The position numbers and the translations under genes were made by a program. A DNA stretch of 64,000 bases, taken from the NCBI RefSeq assembly GCF_022846255.1, contig NZ_AP025682.1; one strand, 5' to 3'. Positions within the stretch are counted from its first letter, which is position 1, and each line of letters opens with the position of its first letter. This DNA comes from Escherichia coli. GTDB taxonomy: Bacteria; Pseudomonadota; Gammaproteobacteria; Enterobacterales; Enterobacteriaceae. Positions 27,707-32,775 of the stretch are shown one piece after another. The notes under the pieces were generated by a model, which saw nothing but the letters and a program-made list of their open reading frames with translations, did no database searches and was not told where the DNA came from.

Positions 27707-29374
27707 GTGGCTCAATTCGTTTATACCATGCATCGTGTCGGCAAAGTTGTTCCGCCGAAACGTCATATTTTGAAAAACATCTCTCTGAGTTTCTTCCCTG
27801 GGGCAAAAATTGGTGTCCTGGGTCTGAACGGCGCGGGTAAGTCCACCCTGCTGCGCATTATGGCGGGCATTGATAAAGACATCGAAGGCGAAGCGCGTCC
27901 GCAACCGGATATCAAGATTGGTTATCTGCCGCAGGAACCGCAGCTGAACCCGGAACACACCGTGCGTGAGTCCATTGAAGAAGCGGTTTCTGAAGTGGTT
28001 AACGCCCTGAAACGCCTGGATGAAGTGTATGCGCTGTACGCCGATCCGGATGCCGATTTTGACAAGCTGGCCGCTGAACAAGGCCGTCTGGAAGAGATCA
28101 TTCAGGCTCACGACGGTCACAACCTGAACGTTCAGCTGGAGCGTGCGGCGGATGCGCTGCGTCTGCCGGACTGGGACGCGAAAATCGCTAACCTCTCCGG
28201 TGGTGAGCGTCGTCGCGTGGCGTTGTGCCGCCTGCTGCTGGAAAAACCAGACATGCTGCTGCTCGACGAACCGACCAACCACCTGGATGCCGAATCCGTG
28301 GCCTGGCTGGAACGCTTCCTGCACGACTTCGAAGGCACCGTTGTGGCGATTACCCACGACCGTTACTTCCTTGATAACGTTGCAGGCTGGATCCTCGAAC
28401 TGGACCGCGGTGAAGGTATTCCGTGGGAAGGTAACTACTCCTCCTGGCTGGAGCAGAAAGATCAACGTCTGGCGCAGGAAGCTTCACAAGAAGCTGCGCG
28501 TCGTAAGTCGATTGAGAAAGAGCTGGAGTGGGTACGTCAGGGAACTAAAGGCCGCCAGTCGAAAGGTAAAGCACGTCTGGCGCGTTTTGAAGAGCTGAAC
28601 AGCACCGAATATCAGAAACGTAACGAAACCAACGAACTGTTTATTCCACCTGGACCGCGTCTTGGCGATAAAGTGCTGGAAGTCAGCAACCTGCGTAAAT
28701 CCTATGGTGATCGTCTGCTGATTGACTCCCTGAGCTTCTCGATCCCGAAAGGAGCGATCGTCGGGATCATCGGTCCGAACGGTGCGGGTAAATCGACACT
28801 GTTCCGTATGATCTCTGGTCAGGAACAGCCGGACAGCGGCACCATCACTTTGGGTGAAACGGTGAAACTGGCGTCGGTTGATCAGTTCCGTGACTCAATG
28901 GATAACAGCAAAACCGTTTGGGAAGAAGTTTCCGGCGGGCTGGATATCATGAAGATCGGCAACACCGAGATGCCAAGCCGCGCCTACGTTGGCCGCTTTA
29001 ACTTTAAAGGGGTTGATCAGGGTAAACGCGTTGGCGAACTCTCCGGCGGTGAGCGCGGTCGTCTGCATCTGGCGAAGCTGCTGCAGGTTGGCGGCAACAT
29101 GCTGCTGCTCGACGAACCAACCAACGACCTGGATATCGAAACCCTGCGCGCACTGGAAAACGCCCTGCTGGAGTTCCCGGGCTGCGCGATGGTTATCTCG
29201 CACGACCGTTGGTTCCTCGACCGTATCGCCACCCACATTCTGGATTACCAGGATGAAGGTAAAGTTGAGTTCTTCGAAGGTAACTTTACCGAGTACGAAG
29301 AGTACAAGAAACGCACGCTGGGCGCAGACGCGCTGGAGCCGAAGCGTATCAAGTACAAGCGTATTGCGAAGTAA
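27707..29374 (+). CDS. ettA: ABC-F energy-dependent translational throttle EttA (YjjK)
   Basis: 555 aa with two ABC ATPase cassettes (Walker A GLNGAGKST and GPNGAGKST; LSGGE signatures). Confidence 0.97.
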   Translation: MAQFVYTMHRVGKVVPPKRHILKNISLSFFPGAKIGVLGLNGAGKSTLLRIMAGIDKDIEGEARPQPDIKIGYLPQEPQLNPEHTVRESIEEAVSEVVNALKRLDEVYALYADPDADFDKLAAEQGRLEEIIQAHDGHNLNVQLERAADALRLPDWDAKIANLSGGERRRVALCRLLLEKPDMLLLDEPTNHLDAESVAWLERFLHDFEGTVVAITHDRYFLDNVAGWILELDRGEGIPWEGNYSSWLEQKDQRLAQEASQEAARRKSIEKELEWVRQGTKGRQSKGKARLARFEELNSTEYQKRNETNELFIPPGPRLGDKVLEVSNLRKSYGDRLLIDSLSFSIPKGAIVGIIGPNGAGKSTLFRMISGQEQPDSGTITLGETVKLASVDQFRDSMDNSKTVWEEVSGGLDIMKIGNTEMPSRAYVGRFNFKGVDQGKRVGELSGGERGRLHLAKLLQVGGNMLLLDEPTNDLDIETLRALENALLEFPGCAMVISHDRWFLDRIATHILDYQDEGKVEFFEGNFTEYEEYKKRTLGADALEPKRIKYKRIAK

Positions 29375-29384
29375 TGCGTAAAAT

Positions 29385-29416
29385 GCCGGATGCGGCGCAC
29401 CAGCATCGCATCCGGT
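29385..29416. repeat. REP-like palindromic hairpin downstream of ettA
   Basis: gccggatgcg...cgcatccggt: 9-bp inverted repeat with the GCCGGATGCGGCG signature of REP elements. Probable ettA terminator and left edge of the toxin-antitoxin cassette. Confidence 0.5.
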
Positions 29417-29429
29417 ATTAGTTAAATGA

Positions 29430-29714
29430 TTAATGGGAAGCAAGTTCCCGGAAAAAGGCAGGATTTTCTTTAATTGTGGCAAGTACTTTTGCAGCCAATC
29501 CCGTAGGATTTCTTCGCTTCGATTCCCAGCTTTTAATGGTATCCACACTGGTTCCCAGAGCTTTTGCCATCTCACTTTGAGAAACGTTGAGTTGCTCACG
29601 AATAGCTTTAACATCCGCAATTTCGTAGCGGGTCACCCGTGCAGGTTCTTTTAAACCTTGTTTAATCTCGACAGCCTCTTCCAGAGAGGTTTTCAACTCA
29701 TCAAAAAAACTCAT
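29430..29714 (-). CDS. HigA2-like antitoxin (XRE-family HTH, addiction-module antidote)
   Basis: 94 aa MSFFDELKTSLEEAVEI...LNVSQSEMAKALGTSVDTIKSWESKRRNPTGLAAKVLATIKENPAFF: C-terminal XRE helix-turn-helix; start 1 nt after the toxin stop. Confidence 0.8.
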   Translation of the reverse strand: MSFFDELKTSLEEAVEIKQGLKEPARVTRYEIADVKAIREQLNVSQSEMAKALGTSVDTIKSWESKRRNPTGLAAKVLATIKENPAFFRELASH

Positions 29715-29715
29715 T

Positions 29716-30048
29716 TTATATCTCGCCTTTGAGCAGTTTCGTCAACTTCTTTAGTTGAGCTTTTTCCGTATCTGTCAGACTATCTTTGGCATTTATCGGA
29801 TAGGCCATAATCAAATAAATAATCTCTTCCGTCGCCAGAAAGTAAATTATTCTGACACTGCCACTTTTTCCCTGTGAACCCGCAGCCATTCGGACTTTAC
29901 GCAATCCACCAGTCTGCTGAATGAGATCACCTTTATCGGGAGTTCCGATGAGTTCTTTTTGTAATTCCTTTAATTCATCATCGGTTGCAATCTGCTTGAT
30001 CTGACGCGTAAACATTGGCGTCTCTATAAATATTTTCGCCTTACCCAT
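29716..30048 (-). CDS. HigB2/Gp49-like toxin of the RelE superfamily (type II TA toxin)
   Basis: 110 aa with the motif QTGGLRKVRMAAGSQGKSGSVRIIYF, typical of HigB-2 / addiction-module killer proteins; strong RBS GGAGGGGG; toxin-first gene order. Confidence 0.8.
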   Translation of the reverse strand: MGKAKIFIETPMFTRQIKQIATDDELKELQKELIGTPDKGDLIQQTGGLRKVRMAAGSQGKSGSVRIIYFLATEEIIYLIMAYPINAKDSLTDTEKAQLKKLTKLLKGEI

Positions 30049-30063
30049 TCCCCCTCCCTGTCA

Positions 30064-30100
30064 GGTACATTGTACACCTAAATGGAGTACTAAGTACACT
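30064..30100 (-). promoter_or_regulatory. Putative promoter/operator of the toxin-antitoxin cassette
   Basis: Two near-palindromic GTACnnnGTAC elements (ggtacattgtacacc and agtactaagtacact) 20-50 bp upstream of the toxin start. Confidence 0.4.
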
Positions 30101-30139
30101 TTTAAATCAGTAATCCCACTCAACATCTTATAAAGATGA

Positions 30140-31372
30140 TTATCTTTGCTCCCCCATCATCTCCCGCACCAGCTCCACGCAGCGCAGGAAACGGCTGTCG
30201 TAATCGTCCTCTTCAACCCGCACGAATTCGATATTGTTCTCTTCCAGCATCTCCACCAGCAAGTTCTGGAACTCTTTGCGATCCACCGAACTGCCGAGGC
30301 TGCGTAAACCATCCGCCACCCACGGCGTGTTGTTCTCCAGCAGGATCACCAGATCGAAACGGTATTCATCAATCAACGCCTGCACGAACGGATGCTCACG
30401 CCCTTCGTACTTTTTGCAGAACGCCTGGGTAGTGACAAAATCGGTGTCGATAAACGCCACTTTATTGGCATATTTCACTGCAAAATCAATATATTGCGCG
30501 TGTCCCAGCGCGATTTTATCGTAGTCGGAATACTGCAACGCAATCTCATCACCGCCAAGGTGTGAAAAGACATAATCGCGACCATATTCCCATGCACTGG
30601 TAGTGTTGAAGATATTGGCAAGTTTGTTTACCAGGGTGGATTTACCGCTCGACTCGCCGCCAAGGATCGCCACGGTACGCACAAAGAACGGCTTAACTTC
30701 CGTAGGAATATATTCCCAGTAGCGGAACGGGTTTTCGCGGATCTGCGCACCGCTGATACTCATAAAGGTACGCTTCGGATCGACCAGCACCGTCTCGATC
30801 CCCAGATGTTCCATATACTGCGGCGCATCGGCTTCTTCCGAGGTGTAGATCAGGTCCGGCTGAATGCCTTTTTCGGCCATAAACTTTTTGATGCCGTTGC
30901 TCCACACATCCCAGCCATGTGGATACGGTTCCATGCCCTCTTCGTTAAAAGCATGAATGCGGATATTTTTTTGATACTTAAAGGTCTGCAATAACCAGCG
31001 CAGACGATCCGGCACGGTTGGCTGCTGCGACATGGCGCTGTCTTCGAACAATGCGCGGTCGCGGGTATCGTCAAAACCCATAATGATATGCAGCTCGTCA
31101 ACCTGGCTACAGGCGCGCTGGATAAGGTAGATATGTCCAGTATGCAGCGGGTAAAACTTACCGAATACGACACCGATCGTTTTCTTCTGCCGGGGAAATT
31201 CAAGTCCCAAATAACGGTGCAATGCCTCCAGCTTTTGTGCGCTGGGGCTTTTAATTTTGGCATTCAGTAACTGGCTTAAATACCCTTTGGTCATACCGCT
31301 GGCATCAGCTACCTGCTGTAGCGTGCAGCCCTGTTGCTTGATGGCAGTTTTCAGGTAATCAAATGACGACAT
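30140..31372 (-). CDS. nadR: Trifunctional NAD biosynthesis/regulator protein NadR
   Basis: 410 aa starting MSSFDYLKTAIKQQGCTLQQVA (HTH, NMN adenylyltransferase and ribosylnicotinamide kinase regions). Confidence 0.95.
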   Translation of the reverse strand: MSSFDYLKTAIKQQGCTLQQVADASGMTKGYLSQLLNAKIKSPSAQKLEALHRYLGLEFPRQKKTIGVVFGKFYPLHTGHIYLIQRACSQVDELHIIMGFDDTRDRALFEDSAMSQQPTVPDRLRWLLQTFKYQKNIRIHAFNEEGMEPYPHGWDVWSNGIKKFMAEKGIQPDLIYTSEEADAPQYMEHLGIETVLVDPKRTFMSISGAQIRENPFRYWEYIPTEVKPFFVRTVAILGGESSGKSTLVNKLANIFNTTSAWEYGRDYVFSHLGGDEIALQYSDYDKIALGHAQYIDFAVKYANKVAFIDTDFVTTQAFCKKYEGREHPFVQALIDEYRFDLVILLENNTPWVADGLRSLGSSVDRKEFQNLLVEMLEENNIEFVRVEEDDYDSRFLRCVELVREMMGEQR

Positions 31373-31392
31373 ATCTCCCTCCGTATCTCTCA

Positions 31393-32775
31393 TTATAAGT
31401 CGTCGAACACGCTAAGCGCGTCGGAGAGTTTTTTAACGCCAAAAATCTGCATCCCTTCCGGCGCTTTTTTCGGCACGTTAGCTGCCGGAACAATTGCCCG
31501 GCGAAAACCGTGTTTCGCCGCTTCTGAGATTCGTTCCTGGCCGCTAGGCACCGGGCGGATCTCCCCTGCCAGCCCGACTTCACCAAACACCACCAGATCC
31601 TGCGGTAGCGGTCTGTCACGCAGGCTGGAAACCATCGCCAGCAGTAACGCTAAATCGGCACTGGTTTCCGTCACCTTCACGCCACCGACCACGTTAACAA
31701 ACACATCCTGATCGGCCATTTGTAGACCACCGTGACGGTGAAGCACCGCCAGCAGGATTGCCAGACGGTTTTGCTCCAGCCCGACTGCCACGCGGCGTGG
31801 ATTCGCCATCATCGAGTGATCGACGAGCGCCTGAATCTCCACCAGCAGCGGACGCGTTCCTTCCCACACTACCATCACTGAGCTACCGGAGGTCACTTCA
31901 TCGCCGCGACTTAAGAAAATTGCCGAAGGGTTGCTGACTTCACGCAGCCCCTGCTCGGTCATTGCGAAGACACCCAGCTCATTCACCGCGCCGAAGCGGT
32001 TTTTATGGCTGCGTAAGGTGCGAAAACGTGAGTCGGCATCACCATCCAAAAGCACCGAACAGTCGATACAGTGTTCCAGCACTTTAGGGCCAGCCAGCGA
32101 GCCATCTTTGGTTACGTGCCCGACCATGACAATCGCCACACCGCGCGTTTTGGCGAAGCGCGTCAGATAAGCCGCCGTTTCACGCACCTGTGCCACGCTG
32201 CCAGGCGATGATTGTACATCCGCCATATGCATCACCTGGATGGAGTCAATTACCATCAGCTTCGGTTGCTCTTCTTCGGCAATCAGGCAGATCTGCTCGA
32301 TGCTGGTTTCCGACAGCATATTAAGATTGTCAGTCGGCAGGCCAAGGCGATGAGCGCGCATTGCCACCTGTTGCAGCGACTCTTCGCCGGTGACATACAG
32401 CGTTTTCATCTGCTGCGCCAGTTTGCACAGCGTTTGCAGCAACAGCGTGGATTTCCCCGCACCAGGGTTACCGCCAATCAGAATGGCGCTTCCCGGCACC
32501 ACGCCGCCGCCTAATACGCGGTCGAACTCTTTAAATCCGGTGGAAAAACGCGGCAGCTCTTCAAGGCTGATGTCGGAAAGTTTCTGGACTTTTGCCACTC
32601 CGGCGCTACCGGCATAGCCACTGAGACGCTCGTTACGCGCCACCGTTGGCGACGCTGCAAGACGCACCTCGGTGATGGTGTTCCAGGCATGACAGGCACT
32701 GCACTGCCCCTGCCAGCGCGGATAATCGGCCCCGCATTCATTACAAACAAAGGCGCGTTTTGGAGCTTTTGCCAC
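31393..32775 (-). CDS. radA: DNA repair protein RadA (Sms)
   Basis: 460 aa with N-terminal C4 zinc finger, Walker A GGNPGAGKST and Lon-like C-terminus; probable GTG start. Confidence 0.95.
   Translation of the reverse strand: MAKAPKRAFVCNECGADYPRWQGQCSACHAWNTITEVRLAASPTVARNERLSGYAGSAGVAKVQKLSDISLEELPRFSTGFKEFDRVLGGGVVPGSAILIGGNPGAGKSTLLLQTLCKLAQQMKTLYVTGEESLQQVAMRAHRLGLPTDNLNMLSETSIEQICLIAEEEQPKLMVIDSIQVMHMADVQSSPGSVAQVRETAAYLTRFAKTRGVAIVMVGHVTKDGSLAGPKVLEHCIDCSVLLDGDADSRFRTLRSHKNRFGAVNELGVFAMTEQGLREVSNPSAIFLSRGDEVTSGSSVMVVWEGTRPLLVEIQALVDHSMMANPRRVAVGLEQNRLAILLAVLHRHGGLQMADQDVFVNVVGGVKVTETSADLALLLAMVSSLRDRPLPQDLVVFGEVGLAGEIRPVPSGQERISEAAKHGFRRAIVPAANVPKKAPEGMQIFGVKKLSDALSVFDDL

Follow-up and report, generated by a model that had tools for sequence, protein, structure and literature searches.

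Among proteins of solved structure, the best match to the gene pair analysed here is HigB2/HigA2 of Vibrio cholerae (VCA0468/VCA0469; PDB 5JA8, 5JAA, 5J9I and 8A0X). HigB2 is a toxin of about 110 residues from the PF06296 family, and K84A, the most damaging of its active-site changes, lowers the activity 3000-fold (PMC5416850). By analogy with this pair, an intact toxin of the same type would enter the ribosomal A site and cleave translating mRNA, although for the Escherichia coli locus toxicity, neutralisation and operator binding are extrapolated from the V. cholerae proteins, with which identity is only ~34%. Our literature search on the Escherichia coli locus, including PF06296 and nadS, found no experimental study.

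The window, a 64,000-nucleotide stretch of E. coli DNA, contains two small minus-strand genes in positions 29375–30139, which is exactly the intergenic region between ettA and nadR. The toxin gene (29716–30048, minus strand) and the antitoxin gene nadS (29430–29714, minus strand) both start with ATG and encode 110 and 94 amino acids, respectively. A single nucleotide (29715) separates the TAA stop of the toxin gene from the ATG of nadS, confirming the tight coupling, toxin first, that had been described in a sequence-only reading of the window. The pair has the organization of a type II toxin-antitoxin (TA) operon, with the antitoxin directly 3' of the toxin and the two genes kept as a unit. 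The same reading had described an AT-rich cassette of about 715 bp, and we indeed find 710 bp with 41.4% GC between the stop codons of nadS and nadR. This composition is foreign, as GC contents are 50.6–57.3% in slt, ettA, nadR and radA, and 51.2% over the whole window. Among the open reading frames of the window no integrase, transposase or recombinase gene bounds the cassette, a search for flanking terminal or direct repeats found none, and an Rfam scan of positions 29250–30250 at permissive E-values returned no RNA family. We consider it probable that the pair is a chromosomal type II TA operon of the HigB2/HigA2 (PF06296/NadS) family, an old resident that is now decaying and whose toxin is attenuated or inactive in this allele.

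The toxin (WP_137500856.1) matches Pfam PF06296 ('RelE') over residues 10–106 (E = 1.7e-8), the V. cholerae HigB-2 PDB chains over residues 5–101 (6e-16) and PHROG 5869 (2.9e-27). Nearly all of the 903 database proteins that match it at E ≤ 1e-5 are tagged PF06296. An NCBIfam search gave no family model for the toxin, and its match to Crn1 is spurious (16 bits, with a cut-off of 125). The AlphaFold model (pLDDT 88.9, pTM 0.83) has the helix arrangement of HigB2, including the C-terminal helix, and the RelE/ParE (BECR) fold; the top 11 PDB matches in Foldseek are all HigB2 chains (TM 0.73–0.82, rmsd 1.6–3.6 Å). Both motifs that had been picked out by eye, GGLRKVRMA and GKSGSVRIIYF, are present in the translation, at residues 47–55 and 60–70. 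The Pfam and PDB matches and the predicted structure thus support the earlier assignment to the RelE superfamily and to the HigB-2 type, and supply the homology to RelE/HigB-family toxins that had been named as a check; the additional label 'Gp49-like' is only marginal (PF05973, E = 0.058). HigBA2 of Acinetobacter baumannii, which we considered as a comparator, belongs to the GP49-domain family and is the wrong one.

Residues Arg51, Arg64, Tyr82 and Lys84 of V. cholerae HigB2 correspond to Arg53, Arg66, Tyr83 and Ile85 of the window toxin. Judged by this alignment, the protein is a family member by descent, and its allele lacks a complete active site: both arginines and the tyrosine are kept, and the catalytic lysine is replaced. 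The isoleucine at this position had been overlooked in the sequence-only reading. Codon 85 (ATA; 29794–29796, minus strand) specifies lysine (AAA/AAG) elsewhere in the family, with Lys present in all 46 homologues from other species and in 116 of 120 cluster representatives; the four exceptions include three E. coli-type sequences and one with Thr. The codon reads AAA in E. coli UM146, and AAG in WL297, strain 131 and E. fergusonii, and these alleles indicate that Lys is the ancestral state. Lys88, three residues past Ile85, is invariant among the 120 representatives. The Ile85 allele is found in 222 of 672 cassette-bearing E. coli genomes and on at least 1000 contigs. The exact window sequence (K5/I85) is rare, occurring on only 3 contigs, and I5K is a private change at a position outside the columns that are at least 90% conserved. 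With its catalytic residue changed from Lys to Ile, the toxin encoded here has most probably lost much or all of its activity, and a toxicity assay may well turn out negative without disproving family membership. An Ile85 reading frame that is intact and common is also compatible with a change that is tolerated or compensated. Over-expression of a toxin that has lost catalysis could still be toxic if the protein continues to bind ribosomes.

NadS (WP_000007436.1) matches the NCBIfam model NF041265 over its full length (residues 1–94 of 94; E = 1.2e-54; 182.6 bits, cut-off 60). Its XRE helix-turn-helix (HTH) comprises residues 35–79 (Pfam HTH_3, 6e-10), and residues 33–91 align to the PDB chains of V. 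cholerae HigA-2 (2e-6), in agreement with the 94-residue XRE-HTH antitoxin proposed before. Residues 1–32 precede the HTH and show conservation both in the homologues and in a K-12 relic of the gene. They presumably form the toxin-binding segment, and show no significant alignment to the neutralising segment of HigA2 (residues 1–41). If NadS acts like its V. cholerae counterpart, it would neutralise the toxin through this N-terminal segment. The NadS protein is identical in the six E. coli alleles compared and differs by 0–1 residues in E. fergusonii; the number of variable amino-acid positions among the E. coli alleles is five for the toxin and zero for NadS. The alleles thus point to uneven constraint, with an invariant NadS and a toxin that varies even at the catalytic Lys; the changes in nadS are 2 synonymous and 0 non-synonymous, which are tiny counts.

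The 91-nt spacer between nadR and the toxin gene (30049–30139, minus strand) contains predicted operators and a presumed promoter. A Shine-Dalgarno sequence read from the DNA, GGGAGGGGG (30050–30058, minus strand), lies 2–10 nt upstream of the toxin ATG. It is preceded by two predicted NadS operators 22 bp apart, both unstranded: a proximal site, GTACAATGTAC (30065–30075; context GGTGTACAATGTACCT), and a distal site, GTACTTAGTAC (30087–30097; context AGTGTACTTAGTACTCC). The proximal site contains a -10-like TACAAT (30069–30074, minus strand), and the distal one overlaps a weak -35-like TGTACT (30093–30098, minus strand). We propose that TGTACT-18-TACAAT, within the two operators, may be the promoter; a consensus scan detected no sigma-70 site in front of the toxin gene, and its one weak internal match is no more than shuffled sequences yield. 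A terminator scan of the spacer found none after nadR, so read-through from nadR is possible.

Of 53 homologous loci, 48 have the palindrome GTAC-N3-GTAC in the 100 nt that precede the toxin gene, with 54 matches in 5.8 kb of upstream DNA versus 4 in 366 kb elsewhere (~750-fold enrichment). Its conservation in these loci, together with the occurrence of only two matches in the 64-kb window, both upstream of the toxin, makes it likely that the palindromes are the NadS operator. Every E. coli and E. fergusonii allele in the comparison keeps the proximal site, and the distal site carries a point change in one E. coli allele (2014C-3338). Paired sites 21–22 bp apart are also found in Serratia and other enterobacterial loci (L006, L008, L015 and L018). 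In homologues with a single site the palindrome occupies the spacer between the -35 and -10 elements, where the V. cholerae operator likewise sits (PMC11006873). The palindromic sequence expected at the promoter of a TA operon is therefore present, and we infer that NadS binds it. Because the V. cholerae operator has a different spacing and three of the four base-contacting residues differ in NadS, the operator assignment is one of comparative conservation. Bound to these promoter-overlapping palindromes through its C-terminal HTH, a NadS dimer would repress the operon, as modelled on HigBA2.

At the other end of the cassette, between the convergent genes ettA and nadS, an unstranded REP-like hairpin (29382–29419) starts 8 nt past the ettA stop codon. 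Its 13-nt arms (29382–29394 and 29407–29419) are 92% complementary and enclose a 12-nt loop, and the predicted RNA fold has an energy of -26.7 kcal/mol (z = -4.6), with none of 200 shuffled sequences being as stable. The left arm, GCCGGATGCGGCG, also occurs in the REP found at this position in K-12, M70 and SCPM9504; the right arm and the loop are unlike the canonical REP seen in K-12. The strong fold and the shared left arm substantiate the hairpin noted before, which is likely a bidirectional terminator or an mRNA stabiliser.

Of 5426 complete E. coli genomes, 672 (12%) have an intact cassette at the position it occupies in the window, in single copy and always on the chromosome. In E. fergusonii ATCC 35469 the intact cassette also occupies this site, in the order radA-nadR-toxin-nadS-ettA-slt, and is 96.7–99.3% identical to that of the window, with flanks 94.8–96.8% identical. 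In ~69% of the E. coli genomes (3764 of 5426), K-12 included, what remains is ~33 nt from the 3' end of the toxin gene and the initial ~38 antitoxin codons, a relic fused to REP sequence; in K-12 it is annotated as a 55-residue nadS (WP_000007444.1). The whole stretch corresponding to 30049–30139 is deleted in K-12-type strains, and the deletion junction of K-12 is identical to that of SCPM9504. The K-12 relic and the window antitoxin have 74% protein identity over 46 residues and aligned DNA, which excludes an origin of the relic from unrelated sequence. Many strains carry a relic without its start codon or one flagged as a pseudogene. M70-type E. coli has no trace of the cassette, and ~10% of the genomes are without any remnant, a rough estimate based on 535 records at ≥99% identity to a junction query that is confounded by joining pieces across the K-12 relic. 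In an independent survey, Pfam 'RelE'-domain toxins were absent from phylogroups A, C and B1 (PMC10790755). The shared site in 672 genomes and in E. fergusonii, combined with the relics of the K-12 type, indicates that the polymorphism reflects loss in most lineages, and not gain in this one. The cassette had been called strain-specific, and an alignment of ettA-nadR spacers across E. coli had been suggested as a check; the shared site and the relics contradict that view. In K-12, where ettA and nadR had been described as nearly adjacent, the intact pair is missing, but the spacer is not empty.

Close relatives, 76–85% identical, are carried by small mobilizable plasmids and found in 53 other species in unrelated contexts. 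A NadS homologue (68–86% identical) follows the toxin in 52 of these 53 loci; the remaining one ends directly behind the toxin match. None of the loci adjoins nadR or a true ettA. The contig scan that yielded the 53 loci was not exhaustive, as it returned no Escherichia locus despite E. fergusonii ATCC 35469, and absence elsewhere cannot be read from it. Toxins that are 80–90% identical are carried by 100 plasmid records, mostly of 4–7 kb plasmids. Given the same pair on mobilizable plasmids of this size, we suggest that a module of the plasmid type probably settled between ettA and nadR ahead of the diversification of E. coli. It has probably been decaying since, leaving ~69% of the genomes with a relic, roughly 10% with nothing and 12% with the whole cassette. 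In the lineage of the window, Lys85 has changed to Ile (AAA to ATA) and I5K has been added, with the antitoxin and the operators staying intact.

Alternatively, the module might be a fully functional addiction or stress-response system in which K85I is neutral or compensated by Lys88 or by Arg53, Arg66 and Tyr83, so that the toxin still cleaves mRNA and needs NadS. The intact reading frame with its good Shine-Dalgarno sequence, the retention of all other catalytic and invariant residues, and the spread of the Ile85 allele over 222 complete genomes are consistent with this possibility, as is the preservation of NadS and both operators, which is expected if the toxin is still dangerous. However, the equivalent K84A is the worst active-site change in V. 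cholerae HigB2, Lys is kept in nearly all diverse representatives, Ile cannot act as a general acid or base, and the window allele has gained a further private, non-conservative change in I5K; we therefore consider full function unlikely. The mutated catalytic residue also argues against an anti-phage abortive-infection module. TA modules of the RelE/ParE superfamily have been proposed as defence elements (PMC11980606), and both proteins have matches among PHROG families known from phages, but the locus is flanked by the core genes ettA and nadR and does not lie in a defence island. PADLOC gives only generic HTH models and a weak match of a CARF model to the toxin (E 0.003), and we rejected a defence-system assignment; a role in phage defence seems very unlikely.

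The uneven constraint raises the question whether selection acts on NadS, as an anti-addiction factor against plasmid HigB2-type toxins or as a transcription factor, with the toxin as a decaying passenger. Apart from the invariance of NadS, its gene is 99.3% identical to that of E. fergusonii at the nucleotide level (flanks 94.8–96.8%), and the plasmid-borne NadS is more similar to that of the window than the plasmid toxin is (84% and 76%). The K-12 relic, moreover, keeps exactly the N-terminal part, of which residues 3–22 suffice for neutralisation in V. cholerae HigA2, and has been reported as expressed (PMC12350097). Against such domestication, the counts of changes in nadS are tiny and GTAC-N3-GTAC is found nowhere else in the window. 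In addition, the decay of the relic and the complete loss in ~10% of genomes show that there is no general selection for the relic. We regard domestication as quite unlikely, and slightly more so the more specific notion that NadS, and perhaps the 55-residue relic too, confers chromosomal anti-addiction immunity against the 76–85% identical plasmid toxins; if true, cells could lose small mobilizable plasmids without being killed. The reading from which the analysis started, a mobile addiction cassette that was inserted recently, and specifically in this strain, into an otherwise empty spacer, fits the AT-rich composition, the relatives on mobilizable plasmids and in unrelated contexts of other genera, and the traceless M70-type spacer. 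It is hardly tenable given that the cassette keeps its position and orientation throughout 672 E. coli genomes and in E. fergusonii, with allelic identities (96.5–99.5%) typical of core genes, and that K-12-type strains retain pieces of both genes with one deletion junction in common. Nor does the locus bear the marks of a recently inserted mobile element: it has neither a recombinase gene nor flanking repeats, genomes of the K-12 type contain relics, and its position is syntenic in E. fergusonii.

An old, decaying TA operon would explain a polymorphic spot in the E. coli core genome, and would give the recently reported K-12 small gene nadS an origin as a truncated HigA2-type antitoxin fused to REP sequence. 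The locus offers a natural decay series, from the intact module through a point mutant of the catalytic Lys and a toxin deletion with an antitoxin stump to complete loss, which could be useful for work on how chromosomal TA systems evolve and for marking E. coli lineages. Nothing here alters the present picture of TA biology, and the significance is mostly housekeeping.

Compared with known systems, the window pair is a toxin-first bicistron like V. cholerae HigB2/HigA2. The toxins are of similar length, belong to the same Pfam family, adopt the same fold, and share the motifs GGLRK(I/V)R and RIIY as well as three active-site residues. The antitoxins both combine an N-terminal non-HTH segment with a C-terminal XRE HTH, and a palindromic operator with a TGTAC core is located at the promoter of each operon. 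The toxins are nevertheless only ~34% identical. The two systems differ in the fourth active-site residue (Lys84 there, Ile85 in the window allele), and in the operator, which is GTAC-N3-GTAC, twice, in the window and a single TGTACGC-N5-GCGTACA in V. cholerae. The base-contacting residues Arg68, Glu71 and Asn72 of HigA2 are replaced by Asp58, Lys61 and Ser62 in NadS. The V. cholerae pair is located in the superintegron, and the window pair in a spacer between core genes.

The pairs on the Shigella boydii MOBP plasmid p600690_6 and on 5.2-kb plasmids of Yersinia ruckeri, Citrobacter and Pectobacterium are closer, with the same 333+1+285-nt module, toxins 76–85% and NadS 84% identical (76% and 84% for the p600690_6 type), and GTAC-N3-GTAC upstream. 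They differ from the window pair in having the catalytic Lys, a GTG start (VSHAIEF...) and a single operator, and they adjoin mob and rep genes; a role in post-segregational killing is expected there. The K-12 nadS is at the same locus and of the same lineage, with its first ~38 residues ~90% identical to the window antitoxin and the preceding 33 nt derived from the toxin 3' end. In contrast to the window gene, its HTH is replaced by REP-derived sequence and both the toxin and the promoter/operator region are gone, so that it is a relic and not a TA system. More distantly, RelE/RelB of E. coli K-12 (PF05016) and HigB/HigA of Proteus (PF09907) belong to the same RelE/ParE (BECR) superfamily of ribosome-dependent mRNases, but to other Pfam families, and structural matches to YafQ and ParE are weak (E ~1e-2). 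The Proteus operon is toxin-first, as in the window, whereas RelBE is antitoxin-first and has a ribbon-helix-helix antitoxin.

The cassette in the ettA-nadR spacer (29375-30139) has the layout that a sequence-only reading had described: two open reading frames on the minus strand, the toxin gene (29716-30048, 110 aa) and nadS (29430-29714, 94 aa), coupled by a single base between the toxin TAA and the antitoxin ATG. The toxin motifs quoted in that reading are found in the translation, and the region is indeed AT-rich, the 710 bp from the nadS stop to the nadR stop having 41.4% GC, compared with 50.6-57.3% in the neighbouring genes. The REP-like hairpin noticed after ettA is an inverted repeat with 13-nt arms, 8 bases 3' of the ettA stop (fold -26.7 kcal/mol, z = -4.6), with the same left arm as the REP at that place in K-12. 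No terminator is present between nadR and the cassette. The mechanically called nadR frame (30140-31393) encodes 417 aa, its ATG abutting the radA stop, and NadR has 410 aa in the RefSeq annotation of related strains, a trivial start-codon ambiguity.

Protein family searches identify the toxin as a member of PF06296 ('RelE', the Pfam family of HigB-2; 1.7e-8) and the antitoxin as a NadS/HigA-2 relative. PF06296 comprises toxin-first, ribosome-dependent mRNases called HigB2, RelE or StbE (Gerdes 2025, PMC11980606). The best solved relatives of the toxin by sequence are V. cholerae HigB-2 chains (6e-16, residues 5-101), and the top 11 Foldseek PDB matches of its AlphaFold model (pLDDT 88.9) are all HigB2 chains (TM 0.73-0.82), with ParE and YafQ far lower. 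The earlier label 'HigB-2/Gp49-like' is right in its HigB-2 half; the Gp49 model matches only marginally. The NCBIfam model NF041265 'NadS' covers the antitoxin from end to end (182.6 bits, cut-off 60); the protein has an XRE HTH at residues 35-79, and it can be aligned with V. cholerae HigA-2 in the DNA-binding domain. In RefSeq, the pair is named 'type II toxin-antitoxin system RelE/ParE family toxin' and 'NadS family protein'.

The cassette was proposed to be a strain-specific insertion, which its distribution contradicts. Of 5426 complete E. coli genomes, 672 have the toxin gene, always as a single chromosomal copy in the nadR-ettA position, with alleles 96.5-99.5% identical. In E. fergusonii ATCC 35469 the cassette is likewise intact, in the gene order of the window (radA-nadR-toxin-nadS-ettA-slt). 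K-12-type sites hold a relic, found in 3764 of the 5426 genomes: a 307-bp spacer in which the final ~33 nt of the toxin gene precede the ~38 initial codons of nadS, whose frame then passes into REP sequence. K-12 was expected to lack both genes, and it does lack the full pair, while retaining these pieces. The toxin body, operators and promoter region are gone, the deletion ending 3 nt short of the nadR stop codon. Judging from the identical junction in K-12 and in a strain with a further degraded relic, the K-12-type deletion was a single event. Approximately 535 genomes (M70 type) have REPs only. In M70 (L004:1576-1695) two REPs stand alone between ettA and nadR, yet its NadR protein does not differ from the one in strains with the cassette, which suggests that the cassette was lost completely in a later, separate deletion inside the same broad lineage. 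An independent survey reported no Pfam 'RelE'-domain toxins in phylogroups A, C and B1 (PMC10790755). Given its presence in the 672 E. coli genomes and E. fergusonii, the K-12 relic and the single junction, the cassette is an old resident of Escherichia, polymorphic by loss rather than gain.

Between E. fergusonii and the window (L067:2587-3297 against 29430-30139), the cassette is 96.7-99.3% identical and the flanks 94.8-96.8%. nadS reaches 99.3% nucleotide identity, compared with 94.8-96.8% for radA, nadR, ettA and slt, and in the toxin gene E. fergusonii agrees base for base with the E. coli WL297 allele. This closeness suggests unusually strong constraint or inter-species recombination. 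In the cassette-bearing strain E. coli Z1323HEC0355 (L063:2826-3926), the nadR-toxin interval has received an IS-type 'integrase core domain' gene, which overlaps the toxin 5' end and displaces the operator/promoter region, another route of locus disruption. The sole match in the laboratory strain E. coli Trp01 (879044-879113) is 70 nt across the nadS start and toxin end, under the annotation 'helix-turn-helix domain-containing protein'; ettA/nadR sequence around it gave no match, and the locus is possibly engineered or rearranged.

Outside Escherichia, the toxin and NadS genes move as one unit. Among species-representative genomes, a scan gave 53 loci with toxins 62-85% identical, none adjoining nadR or true ettA; in 52 a NadS homologue (68-86% identical) directly follows, and the remaining locus stops just past the toxin match. 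The scan gave no Escherichia locus despite the intact copy in E. fergusonii ATCC 35469, so that a missing match does not equal absence from a species. The plasmid collection contains 100 records with toxins 80-90% identical, mostly on 4-7 kb plasmids of Yersinia, Citrobacter, Pectobacterium, Hafnia, Klebsiella and Shigella. The 7-kb MOBP plasmid p600690_6 of Shigella boydii carries the module between mbe and rep genes, with the same 333+1+285 nt layout as in the window (toxin 76%, NadS 84% identical). The low GC content is still in keeping with, and points to, a foreign, plasmid-type original source.

The active site of VcHigB2 consists of Arg51, Arg64, Tyr82 and Lys84, and K84A is the most damaging change, 3000-fold (Hadži et al., PMC5416850). 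In the alignment these residues correspond to Arg53, Arg66, Tyr83 and Ile85 of the window toxin. Position 85 is Lys in all 46 other-species homologues and in 116 of 120 cluster representatives (Ile in 3, all E. coli-type fragments; Thr in 1). The codon is AAA in E. coli UM146 and 2014C-3338, AAG in E. coli WL297, strain 131 and E. fergusonii, and ATA (Ile) in the window and PSUO2-type strains. About a third of carriers have the Ile allele, a 61-nt probe around the codon matching exactly in 222 of 672 cassette-bearing genomes. The window toxin also has a private I5K, and the exact protein was seen on only 3 contigs. Among family positions at least 90% conserved, K85I is the sole window-specific change without a match in other E. 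coli alleles.

By analogy with VcHigB2 (~34% identical), our reading is that the toxin is probably disabled in the window's lineage, and that K85I is one more step in the decay of the locus. If V. cholerae HigBA2 is a guide, the Lys85 form would be a ribosome-dependent mRNase neutralised by the NadS N-terminus, a NadS dimer at the palindromes would repress the operon, and the Ile85 form would be strongly attenuated. That the module is fully active and tolerates K85I seems unlikely to us. Across six E. coli alleles the NadS protein is identical throughout and the toxin varies at 5 positions; selection on NadS, as anti-addiction immunity or as a regulator, is compatible with a disabled toxin, and we give it slightly less weight still. 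A role in phage defence, for which PADLOC offers no support, is very improbable, and a recent insertion, contradicted by the spread of the pair elsewhere and its old residency in Escherichia, is scarcely credible.

Our literature search gave no experimental work on the E. coli locus. The family, structures and regulation are already known, as are the gene names, from the NCBI annotation pipeline, and the lineage distribution, from large surveys; the catalytic-lysine allele is a modest addition, besides the predicted operator and the explanation of K-12 nadS. The latter (in the K-12 derivative JW5503, L001:1682-1849; window ~29600-29745) is a toxin-antitoxin relic annotated as 55-aa 'nadS', comprising the first ~38 residues of the antitoxin and a REP-encoded tail, with the toxin gene's final ~33 nt ahead of it. 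According to a recent PIRT-seq study it is expressed, and the paper treats it as a hypothetical protein annotated by PGAP (PMC12350097). Since its own promoter and operators are deleted, any expression would require transcripts reading through from nadR or else a new promoter.

Read on the coding strand, the 91-nt stretch ahead of the toxin gene includes AGTGTACTTAGTACTCC and GGTGTACAATGTACCT. Their GTAC-N3-GTAC cores (30065-30075 and 30087-30097) are the only two in the whole 64-kb window, and 48 of the 53 homologous loci have the core no more than 100 nt upstream of their toxin gene (54 matches in 5.8 kb of upstream regions, against 4 in the remaining 366 kb). With its flanks, the palindrome spans ~15 bp, G(T/A)GTAC-N3-GTAC(A/T)C, and we predict it to be a conserved operator. 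In E. coli and Serratia two sites are 21-22 bp apart. A consensus promoter scan gave nothing upstream of the toxin gene; the toxin promoter may consist of a -10-like TACAAT and a weak -35-like TGTACT, which lie within the proximal and the distal site respectively. Where homologues have a single site and a recognisable promoter, the palindrome occupies the spacer between TTGAC(A/T) and the -10, the same promoter position as that of the footprinted V. cholerae HigA2 operator, TGTACGC-N5-GCGTACA (PMC11006873). The half-sites are separated by N3 here and by N5 in V. cholerae, and by alignment three of the four base-contacting HigA2 residues differ in NadS.
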